Origin: Escherichia coli | GTDB lineage: Bacteria > Pseudomonadota > Gammaproteobacteria > Enterobacterales > Enterobacteriaceae | DNA length: 64,000 nucleotides | Assembly: GCF_030384885.1 (NCBI RefSeq) | Contig: NZ_CP128613.1 | Strand: one strand, 5' to 3' | Shown here: positions 1 to 10,374 of the stretch, one piece after another | Numbering within the stretch: position 1 is the stretch's first letter | How the letters are laid out: each line of letters begins with the position of its first letter | Program-made: the position numbers and the translations under genes | Notes under the pieces: model-generated | Databases searched by the model: none | Told to the model about the DNA's origin: nothing | The model's input: only the letters and a program-made list of their open reading frames with translations

Positions 1-915
1 TTCGACCAGCGGCTCTGCATATTGTGTCCGCGTGTAGTGCACCAGCCGGTGCCGGCTGTCGTAATGGTACCGGTGAGTCCGCTCATCATCCGTGCGGATA
101 ACCCCTTCCGGGATGAGGTCGGTTTTCTCCGTCAGCCTGCCGTGACGGTCATACCGGTAAAGATAGTGCGCGTCACGTGTTATACGGTTATCCGGCCACA
201 TGCTGAGGGTGCTGTCCGGGTGCAGCTCCGGGTCAGGCAGGCGGTTACCTGCCGGGTCCGTGGCATACGGGATGCGGATATCCAGATTTGAGGTGGTGGT
301 GTGGACGCCGGTCAGCCTGCCGGTGGTGCTGTAGCTGTAACTCCGGGTCTGGCGCGGGCTGCTGATGCGGATGAGTTCGCCGTTGTCGTTCCAGGTGTAA
401 TCGCGGTCATACTGCAGGCTGTTCAGGTGCTGGCTCTGTAACTGCCCGGCAGGGGTATAAGCGGTGGTGAGTTCATAACGGCCGAAGCTGCGCAGCGTTT
501 CCCGGTGCAGGCGGTCGCGGGTGAAATCCACCAGCGGTGTGTCGCCGAGTTTCATCCCTGCCAGGTAACCACTGCCATAAGTCAGCCATTCCACGGCGGG
601 CAGGCTGTCCGGTATACAGCGGTTCGCCAGCCCCTGCGCGTTGTACGCATGTCTGGTTTCATGCTGCCAGAGCAGTTCATTCGTCTGCGGGTGATGCACC
701 GTCTGGCGCTCACCGGTCAGGGCAAGGTCGGTTTCGCCGGGAAGGACCTTTGCACCGAGCAACGGATTGACCGGATGACCGGACGTCACCCCGCCGGGGC
801 ACACCGAACAGGCCACGCTGGTGGGGGCACCAATACGTACCCCGGCTGAACCCTGAACAATGCTACCGCCATACTGCGTCATGTCGCCCTGACGCGCCGC
901 CGGTTTTCCGCTCAT
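1..915 (-). CDS. Rhs-family core protein, N-terminal part (start codon at 915-913; 3' end runs off window start). N-terminal ~67 aa fused in frame to late-core YD-repeat sequence
   Basis: Manual reverse-strand translation gives [68 protein letters not shown] then [31 protein letters not shown]... with no stop through position 1; matches Rhs N-terminus and YD-repeat core from memory; divergent from yibF as in K-12 rhsA. Confidence 0.75.
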
Positions 916-1143
916 CTGCTCATCCTTGTTTTATCGGGTTATTTGTCTGCTGACAGGCGAAACCCTACAGATTTATAAGAAAGCCTTAAGTGAGATATCT
1001 GTCAGATAAGAACAATTAGGAAAATATTTATATCACCATGATAAATATGTGATTTATTGGGAGGTAACAAACCATCAACATTTTCTGCCCTTTTTCCCAT
1101 CACCAGGCCATACTGATATTTTTCCTCGCACAAAGGACTCGGC

Positions 1144-1752
1144 ATGAAACTCGTCGGTAGCTACACCAGCCCGTTTGTACGCAAACTTTCTATTCTGTTG
1201 TTAGAAAAGGGCATAACTTTCGAATTTATTAATGAACTGCCCTATAACGCGGACAACGGCGTGGCGCAATTTAACCCGTTAGGGAAAGTGCCGGTGCTGG
1301 TGACTGAAGAGGGCGAATGTTGGTTTGATTCGCCGATCATCGCTGAATATATTGAATTAATGAATGTCGCTCCGGCGATGTTGCCGCGCGATCCGCTGGA
1401 GTCGTTGCGAGTGCGCAAAATTGAGGCGCTGGCGGATGGCATTATGGATGCCGGGCTGGTATCGGTGCGTGAACAGGCACGTCCGGCGGCGCAGCAGTCT
1501 GAAGATGAATTGTTACGCCAGCGGGAGAAAATCAACCGCAGTCTGGATGTGCTGGAAGGATATCTGGTCGATGGCACGCTCAAAACCGATATGGTCAACC
1601 TGGCGACTATCGCCATTGCCTGTGCCGTCGGATATCTCAATTTCCGCCGCGTTGCGCCAGGCTGGTGTGTCGACCGCCCACACTTAGTCAAACTGGTCGA
1701 AAACCTGTTTAGCCGCGAAAGTTTTGCCCGCACCGAACCGCCAAAGGCTTGA
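1144..1752 (+). CDS. yibF: Glutathione S-transferase-like protein YibF
   Basis: 202-aa ORF, recognised sequence, expected position next to selA. Confidence 0.9.
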
Positions 1753-1849
1753 TGCGCGATATGTCCTCCTGACCCATCTCACGTTACAATCCGTGGTTAT
1801 GTTAAACGCCCTTCTCCGTGTGAGAGGGCCTTGATCAACCAGGTTTCCT

Positions 1850-3241
1850 ATGACAACCGAAACGCGTTCCCTCTATAGTCAACTTCCGGCTATTGATCGC
1901 TTATTGCGCGATAGCTCTTTCCTTTCTTTGCGTGATACCTATGGTCACACCCGCGTGGTGGAGTTGCTGCGTCAGATGCTTGACGAAGCGCGAGAAGTGA
2001 TTCGTGACAACCAGACGCTGCCCGCATGGTGTGAAAACTGGGCGCAAGAAGTCGATGCCCGGCTGACGAAGGAGGCGCAGAGCGCGCTGCGTCCGGTGAT
2101 CAACCTGACGGGAACCGTGCTGCATACCAATCTTGGGCGAGCTTTACAGGCAGAAGCCGCGGTGGAAGCCGTTGCGCAGGCTATGCGTTCGCCAGTGACC
2201 CTCGAGTACGATCTGGACGACGCCGGACGCGGACATCGCGATCGGGCGCTGGCACAGCTGCTGTGCCGCATTACGGGGGCGGAAGATGCCTGTATCGTTA
2301 ATAACAATGCGGCGGCGGTATTGTTGATGTTGGCGGCCACTGCCAGTGGGAAAGAGGTGGTGGTATCTCGCGGCGAACTGGTGGAGATTGGCGGCGCGTT
2401 TCGTATTCCTGATGTCATGCGTCAGGCAGGCTGCACCCTACACGAAGTGGGGACCACCAATCGCACGCACGCTAATGATTATCGCCAGGCGGTGAATGAA
2501 AATACCGCTCTGTTGATGAAAGTACATACCAGTAACTACAGCATTCAGGGGTTCACCAAAGCGATAGATGAAGCTGAACTGGTGGCGCTCGGCAAAGAGC
2601 TGGATGTTCCAGTGGTGACGGATTTAGGCAGTGGCTCGCTAGTCGATCTTAGCCAGTACGGTTTGCCGAAAGAGCCAATGCCGCAGGAGTTGATTGCGGC
2701 GGGCGTCAGTCTGGTGAGCTTCTCCGGCGACAAGCTGTTAGGCGGGCCGCAGGCAGGAATTATTGTTGGTAAAAAAGAGATGATCGCCCGCCTGCAAAGC
2801 CATCCACTGAAGCGTGCATTACGCGCGGATAAAATGACCCTCGCGGCGCTGGAAGCCACGTTGCGTCTTTATTTACACCCTGAGGCGCTGAGTGAAAAAT
2901 TACCGACCCTGCGTCTGCTTACCCGCAGCGCAGAGGTCATTCAAATCCAGGCACAACGTTTACAGGCCCCCCTTGCCGCACATTACGGCGCGGAGTTCGC
3001 GGTACAGGTTATGCCATGTCTTTCGCAGATTGGCAGTGGTTCGCTGCCGGTTGATCGCCTGCCGAGCGCGGCATTAACGTTTACACCCCATGATGGACGC
3101 GGTAGCCACCTTGAGTCATTAGCCGCCCGCTGGCGTGAATTGCCAGTGCCGGTGATTGGTCGTATTTATGACGGACGATTGTGGCTGGATTTACGCTGCC
3201 TTGAAGATGAGCAACGGTTTTTGGAGATGTTGTTGAAATGA
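1850..3241 (+). CDS. selA: L-seryl-tRNA(Sec) selenium transferase (selenocysteine synthase)
   Basis: 463-aa ORF, recognised; 4-bp ATGA overlap with selB. Confidence 0.93.
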
Positions 3242-5082
3242 TTATTGCGACTGCCGGACACGTTGACCACGGCAAAACAACCTTATTGCAGGCGATTACT
3301 GGCGTAAATGCCGACCGTCTGCCGGAAGAAAAAAAGCGCGGTATGACCATCGATCTCGGCTATGCCTACTGGCCGCAGTCAGATGGTCGCGTGCCTGGTT
3401 TTATCGACGTTCCCGGCCATGAAAAATTTCTTTCCAACATGCTGGCGGGCGTCGGGGGAATCGATCACGCGCTGTTGGTGGTGGCGTGCGATGACGGCGT
3501 GATGGCACAGACTCGTGAGCATCTGGCGATTTTGCAGCTGACCGGTAACCCGATGCTGACAGTGGCGCTGACCAAAGCCGATCGCGTGGACGAAGCGCGT
3601 GTTGATGAGGTTGAACGCCAGGTAAAGGAGGTGCTGCGGGAATACGGTTTTGCTGAGGCAAAACTGTTTATCACCGCAGCAACCGAAGGCCGGGGAATTG
3701 ATGCCCTGCGCGAGCATCTGCTTCAGTTACCAGAACGTGAACACGCCAGCCAACATAGCTTCCGCCTCGCTATCGACCGTGCTTTTACCGTAAAAGGTGC
3801 CGGGCTGGTCGTCACCGGTACGGCGTTAAGTGGGGAAGTGAAGGTAGGCGATTCACTCTGGCTGACTGGTGTAAATAAACCGATGCGCGTGCGTGCGCTA
3901 CATGCGCAAAATCAGCCAACAGAAACTGCCCATGCCGGGCAGCGTATCGCGCTTAACATCGCGGGTGATGCGGAAAAAGAGCAGATTAACCGTGGCGACT
4001 GGCTGCTTGCCGATGCGCCGCCGGAGCCGTTCACACGGGTGATTGTCGAGCTTCAAACCCATACACCGCTGACCCAGTGGCAGCCGCTGCATATTCACCA
4101 CGCCGCCAGCCACGTCACGGGACGCGTTTCGCTGCTGGAAGATAACCTTGCCGAGTTGGTGTTCGACACGCCGCTGTGGCTGGCAGATAACGATCGCTTA
4201 GTGCTACGCGATATCTCGGCCCGCAACACGCTGGCGGGGGCGCGCGTGGTGATGCTTAACCCGCCGCGTCGCGGTAAACGTAAGCCGGAATATCTGCAAT
4301 GGCTGGCGTCTCTTGCACAGGCGCAGAGCGATGCCGATGCGTTAGCTATTCATCTGGAACGCGGAGCGGTTAACCTTGCTGATTTCGCCTGGGCGCGCCA
4401 GCTCAACGGCGAAGGGATGCGTGAACTGCTGCAGCAACCGGGCTATATTCAGGCCGGTTATAGCTTGTTGAATGCGCCGGTTGCCGCTCGTTGGCAGCGT
4501 AAAATTCTCGATACCCTGGCGACTTATCATGAGCAGCATCGCGATGAACCAGGTCCTGGGCGCGAGCGTCTGCGGCGCATGGCGTTGCCAATGGAAGATG
4601 AAGCGCTGGTGCTGTTGCTGATTGAAAAGATGCGCGAAAGCGGCGACATCCTCAGTCATCACGGTTGGCTGCATCTGCCGGATCATAAAGCGGGATTCAG
4701 CGAAGAGCAGCAGGCTATCTGGCAAAAAGCGGAGCCGCTGTTTGGTGACGAGCCGTGGTGGGTGCGTGACCTGGCAAAAGAGACGGGAACCGACGAGCAG
4801 GCAATGCGTTTGACGCTACGCCAGGCGGCCCAACAGGGGATAATTACCGCGATCGTTAAAGATCGTTATTACCGTAACGATCGGATTGTCGAGTTTGCCA
4901 ATATGATCCGCGATCTCGATCAGGAATGTGGTTCAACCTGCGCGGCGGATTTCCGCGATCGCTTAGGTGTAGGCCGAAAGCTGGCAATTCAAATTCTGGA
5001 ATATTTTGACCGTATTGGCTTTACGCGTCGCCGTGGAAATGATCATTTATTGCGCGACGCATTATTATTTCCCGAAAAATAA
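3238..5082 (+). CDS. selB: Selenocysteine-specific translation elongation factor
   Basis: 614-aa ORF with N-terminal GTPase motif [11 protein letters not shown], recognised. Confidence 0.93.
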
Positions 5083-5139
5083 GGGAACGATTAATTCATA
5101 ATAAATATGAATTAATACAAAGTTCTTATTAATGTTAAG

Positions 5140-5177
5140 GAAGCACGTTATTTGATGAATGTAACGTGCTTTTTATT
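5140..5177 (+). terminator. Rho-independent terminator downstream of selB
   Basis: Inverted repeat agcacgtta / taacgtgct followed by T-run. Confidence 0.6.
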
Positions 5178-5271
5178 AAAAATATTTTAATAAACGGTAA
5201 TGTTGATCATATTTTCAAATGAAAATCCTCAGTAAGCTGCCCGCCCTTTTTTACACTTTCAGGAGTGTGTT

Positions 5272-6423
5272 ATGGCAGCTTCAACCTTTTTTATTCCTTC
5301 CGTGAATGTTATTGGTGCTGATTCATTGAATGATGCAATGAATATGATGGCAGATTATGGATTTACCCGTACCTTAATTGTCACCGACAATATGTTAACG
5401 AAATTGGGTATGGCGGGTGATGTGCAAAAAGCACTGGAAGAACGCAATATTTTTAGCGTTATTTATGATGGCACCCAACCTAACCCCACCACGGAAAACG
5501 TCGCTGCAGGTTTGAAATTACTTAAAGAAAATAATTGCGATAGCGTAATCTCCCTGGGCGGTGGTTCTCCGCACGACTGTGCAAAAGGTATTGCGCTGGT
5601 TGCAGCCAACGGCGGTGACATCCGCGATTATGAAGGCGTTGACCGCTCTGCAAAACCGCAGTTGCCGATGATCGCCATCAACACCACGGCGGGTACGGCA
5701 TCAGAAATGACCCGTTTTTGCATCATCACCGATGAAGCACGTCACATCAAAATGGCGATTGTGGATAAGCACGTCACTCCGCTGCTTTCTGTCAATGACT
5801 CCTCGCTGATGATCGGTATGCCGAAGTCACTGACCGCTGCAACGGGTATGGATGCCTTAACGCACGCTATCGAAGCGTATGTGTCTATTGCCGCCACGCC
5901 GATCACCGACGCTTGCGCACTGAAAGCGGTGACTATGATTGCTGAAAACCTGCCCTTAGCCGTTGAAGATGGCAGCAATGAGAAAGCGCGCGAAGCAATG
6001 GCTTACGCTCAGTTCCTCGCGGGTATGGCGTTCAACAATGCGTCTCTGGGTTATGTTCATGCGATGGCGCACCAGCTGGGCGGTTTCTACAACCTGCCAC
6101 ACGGTGTATGTAATGCTGTTCTGCTGCCACACGTTCAGGTGTTCAACAGCAAAGTCGCTGCTGCACGTTTGCGTGACTGCGCTGCTGCGATGGGTGTTAA
6201 CGTGACAGGTAAAAACGATGCGGAAGGTGCAGAAGCCTGCATCAATGCCATCCGTGAACTGGCGAAGAAAGTGAATATCCCGGCAGGCTTGCGTGACCTG
6301 AACGTGAAAGAAGAAGATTTCGCGGTACTGGCGACCAATGCCCTGAAAGATGCCTGCGGCTTTACTAACCCGATTCAGGCAACTCACGAAGAAATTGTGG
6401 CGATTTATCGCGCGGCGATGTAA
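5272..6423 (+). CDS. yiaY: Iron-containing (group III) alcohol dehydrogenase
   Basis: 383-aa ORF, Fe-ADH family features, recognised. Confidence 0.9.
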
Positions 6424-6623
6424 TCATCATTCCCATAATGGCTGGCTAATTGTCAGCCATTTTTTCAACTCTCTCAAAATTTGCGATTTTTGAGAGAGTT
6501 TTAGTTATCTCTGTAATCCTTGCCCGTAAATTCGTGATAGCCGTCGTAAAGCTATCACCAGCTGGCGAAGATTTCGCCAGTCACGTCTACCCTTGTTATA
6601 CCTCACACCGCAAGGAGACGATC

Positions 6624-8162
6624 ATGACCAACAATCCCCCTTCAGCACAGATTAAGCCCGGCGAGTATGGCTTCCCCCTCAAGTTAAAAGCCCGCTACGA
6701 CAACTTTATTGGCGGCGAATGGGTAGCCCCTGCCGACGGCGAGTATTACCAGAACCTGACGCCGGTGACCGGGCAGCTACTGTGCGAAGTGGCGTCTTCG
6801 GGCAAACGAGATATCGATCTGGCGCTGGATGCTGCGCATAAAGTGAAAGATAAATGGGCGCATACTTCGGTGCAGGATCGCGCGGCGATTCTGTTTAAGA
6901 TTGCCGATCGAATGGAGCAGAACCTCGAACTTTTAGCGACGGCTGAAACCTGGGATAACGGCAAACCCATTCGCGAAACCAGTGCTGCTGATGTACCGCT
7001 GGCGATTGACCACTTCCGCTATTTCGCCTCGTGTATTCGGGCGCAGGAAGGCGGTATTAGCGAAGTGGATAGCGAAACCGTGGCTTATCACTTCCACGAA
7101 CCGTTAGGCGTGGTGGGGCAGATTATCCCGTGGAACTTCCCGCTGTTGATGGCGAGCTGGAAAATGGCTCCCGCGCTGGCGGCGGGCAACTGTGTGGTGC
7201 TGAAACCCGCACGTCTTACCCCGCTTTCTGTACTGCTGCTAATGGAAATCGTTGGTGATTTACTGCCGCCGGGCGTGGTGAACGTGGTTAACGGCGCTGG
7301 TGGGGAAATTGGCGAATATCTGGCGACCTCGAAACGCATCGCCAAAGTGGCGTTTACCGGCTCAACGGAAGTGGGCCAACAAGTTATGCAGTACGCCACG
7401 CAAAATATTATTCCGGTAACCCTGGAACTGGGCGGCAAGTCGCCAAATATCTTCTTTGCTGATGTGATGGATGAAGAAGATGCCTTTTTCGATAAAGCGC
7501 TGGAAGGCTTTGCACTGTTTGCTTTTAACCAGGGCGAAGTTTGCACCTGTCCAAGTCGTGCCTTAGTGCAGGAGTCTATCTACGAACGCTTTATGGAACG
7601 CGCCATCCGCCGTGTCGAAAGCATTCGTAGCGGTAACCCGCTCGACAGCGTGACGCAAATGGGGGCGCAGGTTTCTCACGGGCAATTGGAAACCATCCTC
7701 AACTACATTGATATTGGTAAAAAAGAGGGCGCAGACGTGCTCACCGGCGGGCGGCGCAAGCTGCTGGAAGGCGAACTGAAAGACGGCTACTACCTCGAAC
7801 CGACGATTCTGTTTGGTCAGAACAATATGCGCGTTTTCCAGGAAGAAATTTTTGGCCCGGTGCTGGCGGTAACCACCTTCAAAACGATGGACGAGGCGCT
7901 GGAGCTGGCGAACGACACGCAATATGGTCTGGGCGCAGGTGTCTGGAGTCGTAACGGCAATCTGGCCTATAAGATGGGGCGCGGCATTCAGGCCGGACGC
8001 GTATGGACCAACTGTTATCATGCCTACCCGGCACACGCAGCATTTGGCGGCTATAAGCAGTCGGGCATCGGGCGCGAAACCCATAAGATGATGCTGGAGC
8101 ATTATCAGCAAACCAAGTGCTTGCTGGTGAGCTACTCGGATAAACCATTGGGGCTGTTCTGA
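6624..8162 (+). CDS. aldB: Aldehyde dehydrogenase B
   Basis: Start chosen at ATG 6624 ([18 protein letters not shown] aaggag upstream) giving 512 aa; the track ORF from 6450 is an upstream in-frame extension. Confidence 0.9.
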
Positions 8163-8193
8163 TGTAAGAAGCTGGTCGCATCGGGAGGTCATT

Positions 8194-8295
8194 GCCTGAT
8201 GCGACGCTTTCGCGTCTTATCATGCCTGGGGGGGCATATATTTACGCCTGACTCCTGACCGTAGGCCGGATAAGGCGTTCACGCCGCATCCGGCA
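8194..8295. repeat. REP/BIME palindromic units
   Basis: gcctgatgcgacgc...cgtcttatcatgcc and taggccggataaggcgttcacgccgcatccggca consensus REP sequences. Confidence 0.85.
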
Positions 8296-8411
8296 TAAAC
8301 AAAGCGCACGTTGTTACAATTTGCGTTTTAAACCTACATGCGCAATAACCCAGACTACGCCAACAGAAGTGCGTTTCTGGCGGAAGCTGCCCGGCGTGTA
8401 TTGCCGGGCGT

Positions 8412-8747
8412 TTAATCTCGCGTTTCGATGGTGAGCGGGCGGACCAGGCTGTACAGCCACAGACCAAAACAAGCGATGGTGCCAATCACCACGGTGAGGA
8501 ACACACTGACTGACAGGCCTGCAAGCAATCCCGCAGGCAGGGCCAGCAGGCCGTGGATCACGGTGTCGTTCCATCTCACCAGATCGTAGCCAAACATGCC
8601 TAAAACGCCGCAAACCAGACCGTAAATCACCATTGGTGTTCCGAGGCCAATCAGCAATAAACGGTAGATAATTGAAGGTTTAATACGCTTTATCTGTACT
8701 GTGGATGTTTTACTGGGGTTATTCATTAGTTTGGTCAATAGTTCCAT
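8412..8747 (-). CDS. Hypothetical small membrane protein (three hydrophobic segments); may be spurious
   Basis: Open frame in otherwise intergenic DNA; strongly hydrophobic helix-like segments; start uncertain (ATG 8747 or track start 8795). Confidence 0.3.
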   Translation of the reverse strand: MELLTKLMNNPSKTSTVQIKRIKPSIIYRLLLIGLGTPMVIYGLVCGVLGMFGYDLVRWNDTVIHGLLALPAGLLAGLSVSVFLTVVIGTIACFGLWLYSLVRPLTIETRD

Positions 8748-8908
8748 TATTTCAATATGATAAACCTCGACCTGTTGAAAAGCCAGGTAGCACACTTCAG
8801 AAAGTATATAAAAAACAATATGTCGTTATATAAATAAGGAAATTGCACTGCATCATGGCATTTCATAATATGCGTTAATTGTTCTTTTTTATATTCTCTG
8901 AGGGAAAT

Positions 8909-9232
8909 ATGTTCCTGGACTATTTTGCACTGGGAGTGCTTATTTTTGTATTTCTGGTGATATTCTATGGGATTATTATTTTACATGATATTCCCTACCT
9001 GATTGCTAAAAAACGTAATCATCCTCATGCCGACGCCATTCATGTTGCTGGTTGGGTGAGTCTTTTTACGCTGCATGTTATCTGGCCATTTTTGTGGATT
9101 TGGGCCACGCTTTACCGCCCGGAGCGGGGATGGGGAATGCAAAACTATGACTCCTCCGTTGTGCAACTACAACAGCGTATTGCCGGGCTGGAGAAACAGC
9201 TCGCCGACATCAAATCCTCTTCTGCCGAGTAA
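8909..9232 (+). CDS. yiaW: Inner membrane protein YiaW (DUF3302)
   Basis: 107 aa from ATG 8909 ([11 protein letters not shown]), RBS gagggaaa; 6 bp upstream of yiaV. Confidence 0.85.
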
Positions 9233-9237
9233 TACTT

Positions 9238-10374
9238 ATGGATTTACTGATTATTTTGACCTATGTGGCTTTCGCATGGGCAATGTTTAAGATCTTCAAA
9301 ATTCCTGTAAATAAATGGACCATTCCCACCGCGGCCCTGGGTGGCATATTTATTGTCAGCGGTCTAATTCTGTTAATGAACTATAACCATCCGTATACCT
9401 TTAAAGCGCAAAAAGCGGTTATTTCTATTCCTGTTGTCCCGCAGGTGACAGGCGTGGTGATCGAAGTGACGGACAAGAAAAATACGCTGATTAAAAAAGG
9501 TGAGGTGCTATTTCGACTGGACCCGACGCGTTATCAGGCGCGGGTGGATCGGCTGATGGCGGATATCGTTACCGCAGAACATAAACAGCGGGCGTTGGGC
9601 GCAGAGTTAGATGAGATGGCGGCGAATACTCAGCAGGCAAAGGCCACGCGGGATAAATTCGCTAAAGAGTACCAGCGTTACGCACGCGGCAGCCAGGCGA
9701 AAGTAAACCCGTTTTCAGAACGCGATATTGATGTGGCGCGGCAAAATTATCTGGCGCAGGAAGCCTCCGTAAAGTCATCGGCGGCGGAACAAAAACAGAT
9801 CCAGAGCCAGCTGGATAGCCTGGTGTTGGGTGAACATTCTCAAATCGCCAGCCTGAAAGCGCAGCTCGCGGAAGCAAAATATAACCTTGAGCAGACGATA
9901 GTGCGTGCGCCGAGCGATGGTTATGTGACCCAAGTGCTGATTCGTCCGGGTACCTATGCCGCATCGCTGCCGCTACGTCCTGTGATGGTGTTTATACCCG
10001 ATCAGAAACGACAAATTGTGGCGCAGTTCCGTCAGAACTCCTTGCTGCGACTGGCTCCCGGCGATGATGCGGAAGTGGTGTTTAATGCTCTGCCAGGTAA
10101 GGTATTCAGCGGTAAGCTGGCAGCCATTAGTCCAGCTGTTCCCGGCGGAGCTTATCAGTCGACCGGCACCTTACAGACGTTAAACACAGCACCGGGTTCA
10201 GATGGCGTTATAGCGACCATTGAACTGGATGAGCACACTGAGTTGAGCGCTTTACCAGACGGTATTTACGCCCAGGTGGCGGTTTACTCTGATCATTTCA
10301 GCCATGTCTCGGTGATGCGCAAAGTGCTGTTACGCATGACCAGTTGGGTGCATTACCTTTATCTCGATCATTAA
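9238..10374 (+). CDS. yiaV: HlyD-like membrane fusion-type inner membrane protein YiaV
   Basis: 378-aa ORF, N-terminal TM segment and coiled-coil region, recognised. Confidence 0.88.

Follow-up and report, generated by a model that had tools for sequence, protein, structure and literature searches.

The question raised by this locus is whether a small open reading frame (ORF) on the minus strand between aldB and the divergent yiaW is a gene and, if so, what kind of protein it would encode and how it relates to Escherichia coli K-12, in whose reference sequence (NC_000913.3) nothing is annotated between yiaW and aldB. The frame is located in the window, by which we mean the whole stretch of 64,000 nucleotides of E. 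coli contig NZ_CP128613.1 (assembly GCF_030384885.1) that was analyzed. The original prediction, made from the letters of the window, described an unannotated frame of 111–127 codons that may be spurious and that encodes a small membrane protein with three hydrophobic, helix-like segments. As detailed below, the frame has the properties of a conserved gene that most E. coli genomes carry in an internally deleted form or have lost, and its product is predicted to form a membrane hairpin. We consider it likely that these three elements (gene status, deletion history, and hairpin architecture) are jointly correct.

Reading frame, start codon, and flanking sequences

The ORF is present at 8412..8795, between aldB and yiaW, and the hydrophobic segments quoted in the original prediction are found in its translation (Kyte-Doolittle means over 19 residues reach peaks of ∼2.1 at residues 23–42 and ∼2.3 at residues 67–91). 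Three start codons are available in this frame, giving lengths of 127 codons (GTG at 8795), 111 codons (ATG at 8747), and 104 codons (ATG at 8726). Sequence comparison indicates that the last of these is most likely the true start, because all orthologues begin there, with N-termini that align with M24 of the ORF (i.e. ATG 8726), and because stop codons break the upstream extension in three of the eight diverged short E. coli alleles examined (L029, L030, and L031). In the orthologues from outside Escherichia, in-frame stops are located just upstream of the start. The length of 111–127 codons given originally is therefore most likely to be revised to 104 codons, and the upstream extension is probably an untranslated leader or promoter DNA and not coding sequence. 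The resulting protein of 104 amino acids (aa) has the sequence MNNPSK...TIETRD, and its frame is closed by a TAA stop codon at 8414–8412. The features of the locus are collected in Table 1.

Table 1. Features of the aldB–yiaW region in window coordinates
Feature	Position	Strand	Basis
Two REP-like elements, from the aldB stop to the 3′ end of the small gene; context, outside the gene	8156..8330 (8156–8226, 8264–8330)	.	Sub-threshold naRNA4 matches
GC-rich hairpin, 7-bp stem, directly 3′ of the stop codon	8388..8410	-	Terminator-like scan, RNA fold
Coding sequence of the predicted 104-aa inner-membrane protein	8412..8726	-	PGAP call, intact orthologues with the same start, dN/dS, AlphaFold2
Segment that K-12 and ∼70% of E. 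coli genomes lack, 171 bp (57 codons)	8442..8612	-	Window aligned to K-12
In-frame upstream extension of the longer, mechanically called ORF (GTG 8795, ATG 8747)	8727..8795	-	Not in non-Escherichia orthologues; 37.7% GC
AT-rich divergent control region common to the small gene and yiaW	8727..8908	.	182 bp, 30.8% GC

The gene turned out to be annotated already. The window is identical, over the 748 bases compared, to the chromosome of E. coli 2013C-4282 (NZ_CP027579.1), in which PGAP calls a 104-aa hypothetical protein (WP_001064340.1) at the minus-strand equivalent of 8412..8726. This is the same protein at the same coordinates, with no point of difference, so the ORF is an already-annotated hypothetical protein, contrary to the description of the frame as unannotated. 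Its RefSeq orthologues, which are named ‘hypothetical protein’ or ‘inner membrane protein’, are 52–93% identical, have the same length, and lie in the same neighborhood, and their entries are without an assigned function, a family model, or literature.

The length of the ORF is insufficient as evidence for a gene when taken alone, because 95 of 2000 dinucleotide-preserving shuffles of the 746-bp aldB–yiaW spacer (4.8%) reached an ORF length of 127 codons or more, and 312 (15.6%) reached 104 codons or more. The case for more than a chance ORF comes from conservation and not from length. In agreement with the AT-rich 5′ half pointed out in the original prediction, the first 40 codons of the 127-codon ORF have a GC content of 41.7% (GC3 of 0.45), compared with 56.9% for the rest (GC3 of 0.69). 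Scoring of GC by codon position gave a coding-like GC1/2/3 pattern for the small gene, the GC3 of which (0.60) is similar to that of aldB (0.63).

The REP-like elements on the aldB side score 42.1 and 33.9 bits against naRNA4, an Rfam family derived from REP sequences, and so stay below its gathering score of 59.5, and the REP-like stretch has a median of 36 copies per E. coli genome. The stop codon of the small gene is 82 bp from the nearer element, so the reported proximity of the 3′ end to a REP cluster is real. These sub-threshold matches were the only ones obtained in the Rfam search of 8000–9300, in which no known sRNA or antitoxin/antisense RNA family was found. The hairpin that follows the stop codon has a folding energy of −16.3 kcal/mol (z = −2.1) and no U-tract on the strand of the small gene, and a 12-bp deletion in K-12 takes away part of it. 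It is a weak or atypical terminator at best. On the other side of the gene, the K-12 aldB–yiaW spacer contains a constitutive yiaWV promoter (CAGACA-17-TATAAA) that was reported by genomic SELEX (PMC3946193), and its hexamers map to 8784–8789 and 8807–8812 on the plus strand of the window, in or next to the upstream extension of the ORF. The same genomic SELEX study lists H-NS for the K-12 spacer that holds this promoter (PMC3946193), so the small gene may be silenced under laboratory conditions. A strict consensus scan found no sigma-70 promoter on the strand of the small gene. A Shine-Dalgarno sequence is not recognizable before ATG 8726 in the Escherichia genes, whereas the Enterobacter-like and Citrobacter orthologues do carry one.

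Conservation of the gene and its internal deletion in E. coli

A search of 5.8 billion proteins identified full-length relatives in E. coli and Escherichia sp. E1V33 that are 91–99% identical, as well as relatives of 103–105 aa with 56–58% identity on Enterobacter-like metagenome contigs. Escherichia whittamii, two Pseudocitrobacter species, Citrobacter amalonaticus, and Enterobacter sp. kpr-6 were added by a scan of one genome per species. The homologues fall at 92–93% identity in E. whittamii and Escherichia sp. E1V33 and at 52–59% in Citrobacter amalonaticus/farmeri, Pseudocitrobacter, Enterobacter sp., and metagenomes. According to a cluster look-up, hundreds of C. amalonaticus/farmeri assemblies carry the Citrobacter form, and every one of them labels it as hypothetical. 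The orthologous ORFs are intact in all cases (9/9), with 103–105 codons and a common start position in five genera; loss of the frame and frame-disrupting indels, which the original prediction had named as signs against a gene, were not found among them.

Substitution patterns are in agreement with a coding function. The dN/dS ratios were calculated by the Nei-Gojobori method and are reported where dS is measurable (not saturated); they lie at 0.045–0.36 in all such pairs, well below 1. The ratio is 0.11 for E. coli and E. whittamii (19 synonymous and 7 non-synonymous differences), 0.15 for E. coli and Escherichia sp. E1V33, and 0.045 for the two Pseudocitrobacter species, and in comparisons between genera, in which synonymous sites are near saturation, it is 0.10–0.36 where dS is unsaturated. 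Synteny with aldB, yiaY, and yiaUVW is also kept. In Escherichia, in Citrobacter, and on the Enterobacter-like contigs, the small gene and aldB converge tail-to-tail, and in Pseudocitrobacter the small gene is located on the far side of yiaUVW. Judged by these comparisons, the frame at 8412..8726 is a genuine, intact, monocistronic gene under purifying selection, and the gene is shown to be ancestral to the aldB/yiaUVW neighborhood in Escherichia and related genera.

When the window is aligned with K-12, it is apparent that the K-12 copy has a gap of 57 codons that keeps the frame. No K-12 gene is known at this locus, in agreement with the original prediction, because K-12 keeps only a 47-codon remnant after this in-frame deletion; in the PGAP-annotated K-12 copy, the remnant is listed as a 47-aa hypothetical protein in the aldB–yiaW spacer. 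The 47-aa protein found in K-12 and across E. coli (WP_001066080.1 and variants) starts at the same codon as the full-length gene and shares with it the first ∼40 and the last 7 codons. The deleted segment encodes residues ∼41–97, which in the predicted structure described below cover the latter half of helix 1 together with the conserved loop and the whole of helix 2, and its removal takes out every motif that defines the family. The deletion is bounded by an imperfect direct repeat, CTGGTYYGC (CTGGTTTGC on the left and CTGGTCCGC on the right), which leaves an uncertainty of a few bases in the position of the breakpoints.

Among 5426 complete E. coli genomes, the deleted segment is present in 27 (∼0.5%), each time with at least 99% identity. 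A probe for the K-12 junction is nearly complete in 3803 genomes (∼70%), a count to which the 27 full-length genomes may contribute through joined pieces, and the remaining ∼1600 genomes (∼30%) have other arrangements in which the locus is replaced or lost. The intact gene has been internally deleted or lost in >99% of the complete E. coli genomes searched.

In one of the replaced arrangements, aldB is followed by a restriction-endonuclease gene, hicAB, and genes for GH127 and MFS proteins, and all that is left of the small gene is its final ∼29 bp. Other losses in E. coli are associated with IS1.

The 47-codon frame is kept in all of the diverged short alleles examined (8/8). These alleles have two types of junction, GLV-R-PLT and GLV-C-PLT, which could have arisen through one deletion and a subsequent T/C transition or through two independent events. 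In most of the pairs of short alleles that give a ratio, pN/pS is ∼0.2–1.4 (with at most 10 amino-acid changes over 47 codons), compared with a dN/dS of 0.05–0.15 for close full-length orthologues and up to 0.36 for more distant full-length pairs. This handful of substitutions suggests that the remnant is under relaxed constraint. In the supplementary file searched from a K-12 small-ORF ribosome-profiling study, there is no entry for yiaW, aldB, or coordinates beginning 37546/37547 (ten kilobases around the locus), and the main text of the ribosome-profiling preprint has no mention of yiaW, aldB, or any ‘ysa’ name. A full-text literature search by K-12 coordinates or WP accessions returned unrelated papers only. 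Papers on yiaW in macrophage adaptation do not concern the ORF, as they describe an IS1 insertion inside yiaW. The identification of the K-12 remnant as YsaE was considered and rejected, as ysaE pairs with hokA and is not located at aldB/yiaW.

Two other readings of the locus have to be weighed against that of a conserved gene with a decayed K-12 allele. One is that the frame is open by chance in AT-rich, REP-flanked intergenic DNA and that its hydrophobicity is an artefact of composition, which would be consistent with its non-significant length, the lack of a Pfam or NCBIfam match, the weak initiation and promoter signals in Escherichia, and the empty site in the K-12 reference. A chance frame is, however, difficult to reconcile with ORFs that stay intact in five genera at 52–59% amino-acid identity with a dN/dS of 0.05–0.36, with end-to-end matches to 295 family representatives, with a confident AlphaFold2 model once a deep alignment is given, and with the coding-like codon-position pattern. 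The conservation, the intact orthologues, the dN/dS ratios, the family matches, and the kept neighborhood effectively refute it, so that its probability is very low and the earlier suspicion of a spurious frame can be put aside. The other reading accepts the gene and proposes that the 47-aa single-helix remnant is the relevant E. coli product, kept by selection, with the full-length form as a relic. The deletion is indeed in frame, the allele is found in ∼70% of genomes, the ORF has survived in every diverged short allele examined, and many genomes have a PGAP annotation for it. However, an open frame of 47 codons is expected by chance at 5–9% divergence, and the pN/pS values are high, the conserved family motifs are all gone, and ∼30% of genomes are without the remnant entirely. 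It also has no entry in the ribosome-profiling supplementary file mentioned above, and the literature searched does not name it as a validated new small protein. A selected role for the remnant is thus improbable.

Protein family, predicted membrane architecture, and possible role

A family profile was built from five orthologues and searched against 1.84 billion cluster representatives, which yielded 295 proteins at E ≤ 1e-3, of which 79 reached E ≤ 1e-10. The family members are mostly 95–125 aa long and match nearly always from end to end, and most of the distant ones are metagenomic and without a name. Across 128 members, G27, G46, G59, G88, and L89 are near-invariant, N53, W90, and S93 are strongly conserved, and the loop contains a conserved motif, F-G-x-x-T/x-V-x-W-N ... 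G. A few members have N-terminal extensions, one of which resembles a zinc ribbon, and a single protein of 261 aa matches the profile in two stretches. In the scan of one genome per species, a match in a Thermoleophilia MAG was set aside as too short, with only 16 residues matched.

The family is uncharacterized and has no model in the domain libraries searched. The protein has no match in Pfam, to which 73 family members give only scattered sub-threshold matches (MgtE, VMA21, and others), and the best NCBIfam matches have E-values of at least 0.008, far below the cutoffs. No match was obtained to PADLOC models with seven family members, to PHROG families with eight, or to PDB sequences with the family profile. 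A sub-threshold match to SLATT_4 was found for one orthologue only (E = 0.08, 12.8 bits, with a cutoff of 55). No phage copy was detected by tblastn in 50,697 phage records, and the neighbors of the locus are chromosomal housekeeping genes. Genuine plasmid records contained no copy either; the plasmid matches were two mislabelled chromosomes carrying the short allele. The neighborhoods of six distant homologues share no recurring partner gene, so guilt by association yields nothing. The neighboring YiaW (DUF3302, PF11742) is likewise an inner-membrane protein of ∼107 aa and of unknown function, and the AT-rich control region is common to both genes. However, YiaW belongs to an unrelated sequence family (PF11742 matches YiaW at 2.4e-43 and has no match at E ≤ 1 to the small protein), and yiaW shares a transcript with yiaV, a gene of the HlyD family, whereas the small gene stands alone. 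The two genes are also unlinked in Citrobacter and Enterobacter-like genomes.

The structure of the protein was predicted with AlphaFold2. With an alignment of 128 sequences, the model reached a pLDDT of 86.6 and a pTM of 0.66, and it superseded a poor model that was based on five sequences (pLDDT of 62.7). It comprises a helix at residues 17–44, a small β-hairpin at residues 51–56, and one continuous helix at residues 62–95, so the predicted layout is that of a basic N-terminal tail (residues 1–16), helix 1, a loop with the β-hairpin (residues 45–61), helix 2, and a short C-terminal tail. The mean pLDDT values for consecutive blocks of residues 61–100 are 93, 95, 93, and 83. The second hydrophobic block is 34 residues long in every one of the 128 members and contains neither indels nor a polar turn, and this argues for two spans rather than three, because two spans and the turn between them would not fit into such a block. 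The protein probably consists of two long transmembrane helices with both termini on the cytoplasmic side (N-in/C-in). This orientation is favored because the N- and C-terminal tails are net positive and the loop is net negative (family-wide net charges of +1.65, +0.66, and −0.43, respectively); an additional K/R is found at position 22 family-wide. The same model and charge distribution give good support to a periplasmic location of the conserved loop. G27 and G88 are positioned at a similar depth, near the cytoplasmic ends of helix 1 and helix 2, and they may form a tight helix-helix contact. Therefore, the part of the original prediction that concerned a small membrane protein with a coherent transmembrane pattern holds, but its three helices do not, as the second and third segments form one 34-residue helix in the AlphaFold2 model.

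The general architecture of the protein, in which a short loop connects two hydrophobic helices with glycine-rich packing faces within a length of ∼70–110 aa, is common to class II holins, SLATT pore domains, YiaA/YiaB-type domains, and subunit c of F-type ATPases. As a tentative proposal, which we consider possible but short of probable, the small gene product could be a stand-alone membrane protein that binds to copies of itself or to another membrane protein. Such association would be mediated by glycine-dependent helix packing and by the conserved periplasmic loop, and the protein would then act as an accessory or modulatory subunit rather than as an enzyme or transporter. It may also be dispensable under most conditions, as is weakly indicated by the loss of the gene in most E. 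coli.

Other interpretations were considered both for the topology and for the role. A three-span protein with N-in/C-out orientation, in which the block at residues 58–95 would form two short transmembrane helices, could be derived from the broad Kyte-Doolittle plateau from 55 to 95, which can be read as two segments, and from the conserved G70, T78, and G82, which could mark a tight turn. This topology is doubtful, however, since residues 62–95 are modelled as an uninterrupted helix with high pLDDT, the 34-residue block is too short for it in 128/128 members, and the C-terminal tail is net positive like the N-terminal tail whereas the loop is net negative. Regarding the role, the protein could instead permeabilize membranes, in the manner of holins, type I toxins, or SLATT proteins, or confer immunity against a membrane-targeting toxin, and it could have been lost from a variable hot spot as costly or conditionally useless. 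This would be in line with a small two-helix hydrophobic hairpin with glycine-rich helices, with the sub-threshold SLATT_4 match, and with the absence of the intact gene from >99% of E. coli genomes. The genomic surroundings also offer some points in its favor: the site is a rearrangement hot spot and is located beside hicAB in E1V33, on an Enterobacter-like contig, and in some E. coli; a Buttiauxella homologue adjoins an Rhs/VgrG locus with small orphan ORFs, and another homologue adjoins IS elements and a group II intron. However, the gene is convergent with the hicB or Rhs genes and not co-transcribed with them, and no operon that joins it to a toxin, lysis, or defence gene was seen in the loci examined. 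The searches of PADLOC, PHROGs, phage records, and true plasmid records speak against such a role as well. Type I toxins (Hok, Ldr, Ibs, TisB) have fewer than ∼60 aa, one helix, and an antisense RNA, whereas the small protein has 104 aa, two helices, and a conserved periplasmic loop, and no antisense RNA gene was detected by Rfam. A membrane-permeabilizing or immunity function is thus unlikely, and the two-span accessory protein remains our preferred, if tentative, reading.

Meaning for E. coli and for the family

The result is an ordinary one. The ORF is an annotated hypothetical protein, the practical value of the analysis is modest and related to annotation, and current understanding stands. 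The ORF is to be kept as a real gene that starts at 8726, and not as the longer ORF that results from mechanical calling. The family to which it belongs, composed of membrane proteins of ∼100 residues that come mostly from uncultured bacteria, could receive a Pfam or NCBIfam model. There is a slim chance that this family represents a new class of stand-alone two-helix membrane proteins with a role in the envelope exerted through the loop, and that the near-fixed deletion in E. coli is adaptive. If this were true, the deletion would be either the loss of a costly gene or the source of a new 47-aa single-span protein that K-12 still expresses from ‘intergenic’ DNA.

In K-12, the seemingly empty aldB–yiaW spacer holds an unannotated remnant of an in-frame deletion, which is relevant to those who mine K-12 intergenic regions for small proteins and sRNAs. 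The locus is also a single site at which full-length, internally deleted, and replaced alleles are found within one species.

Haplotype of the small-gene region

Compared with K-12, the window has a mosaic structure. The stretch from yiaY to aldB is just 88–97% identical to its K-12 counterpart (yiaY ∼91–93%), whereas yiaV-yiaU, from ∼9200 on, reaches 96–99.5%. The 3′ end of aldB is nearer to Escherichia whittamii (94% identity) than to K-12 (88–89%). The drop in identity in yiaY-aldB relative to yiaV-yiaU suggests that the full-length allele of the small gene, which encodes a 104-aa predicted inner-membrane protein between aldB and yiaW, belongs to a haplotype that is divergent or was imported and that has its breakpoint close to yiaW. 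At the left edge, window positions 1–720 match an internal part of K-12 rhsA, ∼2 kb away from the place predicted by collinearity with the K-12 alignment of window positions 713–6475. Given this offset, the rhs gene at the edge differs from K-12 rhsA, either in its core or by an internal gap of ∼2 kb.

Elements and rearrangements downstream of aldB

The GC-rich hairpin with a 7-bp stem begins 2 bp past the stop codon of the small gene. It is followed by TTTAAT on the plus strand, no U-tract follows it on the strand of the small gene, and one of its arms is removed in K-12 by a 12-bp deletion. Two REP-like palindromic elements score 42.1 and 33.9 bits against the Rfam family naRNA4, below its gathering score of 59.5, and 19 bp between them are absent from K-12. 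Where the window has REP elements, Escherichia sp. E1V33 and an Enterobacter-like contig have hicB, which adjoins the small gene at its 3′ end or overlaps it there. In some E. coli, the small gene and yiaWV are missing, and their place is taken by a type I restriction endonuclease gene together with hicA-hicB and with GH127 and MFS genes. The site 3′ of aldB is a rearrangement hot spot.

Insertions of IS1 are also found at the locus in other strains. In one of T28R and PSS-16, IS1A truncates yiaW, and in the other it stands in place of everything from the remnant of the small gene through yiaL/yiaK. A macrophage-evolved K-12 lineage is likewise reported to have an IS1 insertion in yiaW (PMC5495878).

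Features of the window, comparison loci (L) and distant relatives (P)
Feature	Sequence	Positions	Length
Mosaic relative to K-12	window	5700–9200	
GC-rich hairpin	window	8388–8410	
REP-like element	window	8156–8226	
REP-like element	window	8264–8330	
Remnant, unannotated by PGAP	L029, L031	418–561	
Replaced aldB-downstream site	L024 (E. coli 500111)	900–5200	
hicB at small-gene 3′ end	L010 (E1V33)	4381–4992	
hicB at small-gene 3′ end	L004 (Enterobacter-like contig)	6352–6762	
IS1 insertion	L026 (T28R)	743–981	
IS1 insertion	L032 (PSS-16)	1587–2284	
Distant family member	P0045		160 aa
Distant family member	P0058		261 aa
Distant family member	P0132		244 aa

Remnant annotation and distant relatives

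Annotation of the 47-codon remnant of the small gene is inconsistent between genomes, because the same DNA is labeled as a hypothetical protein in some strains and skipped in O157:H7 and strain 95-3192 (L029 and L031), in which the frame is nevertheless open.

Some distant relatives of the small-gene protein (P0045, P0051, P0058, and P0132) contain extra parts. In one distant family member, two separate stretches match, which may reflect a tandem duplication. A Cys-rich, zinc-ribbon-like N-terminal segment (CPVC...CSSCGC) is present in one member and is consistent with a cytoplasmic N-terminus.
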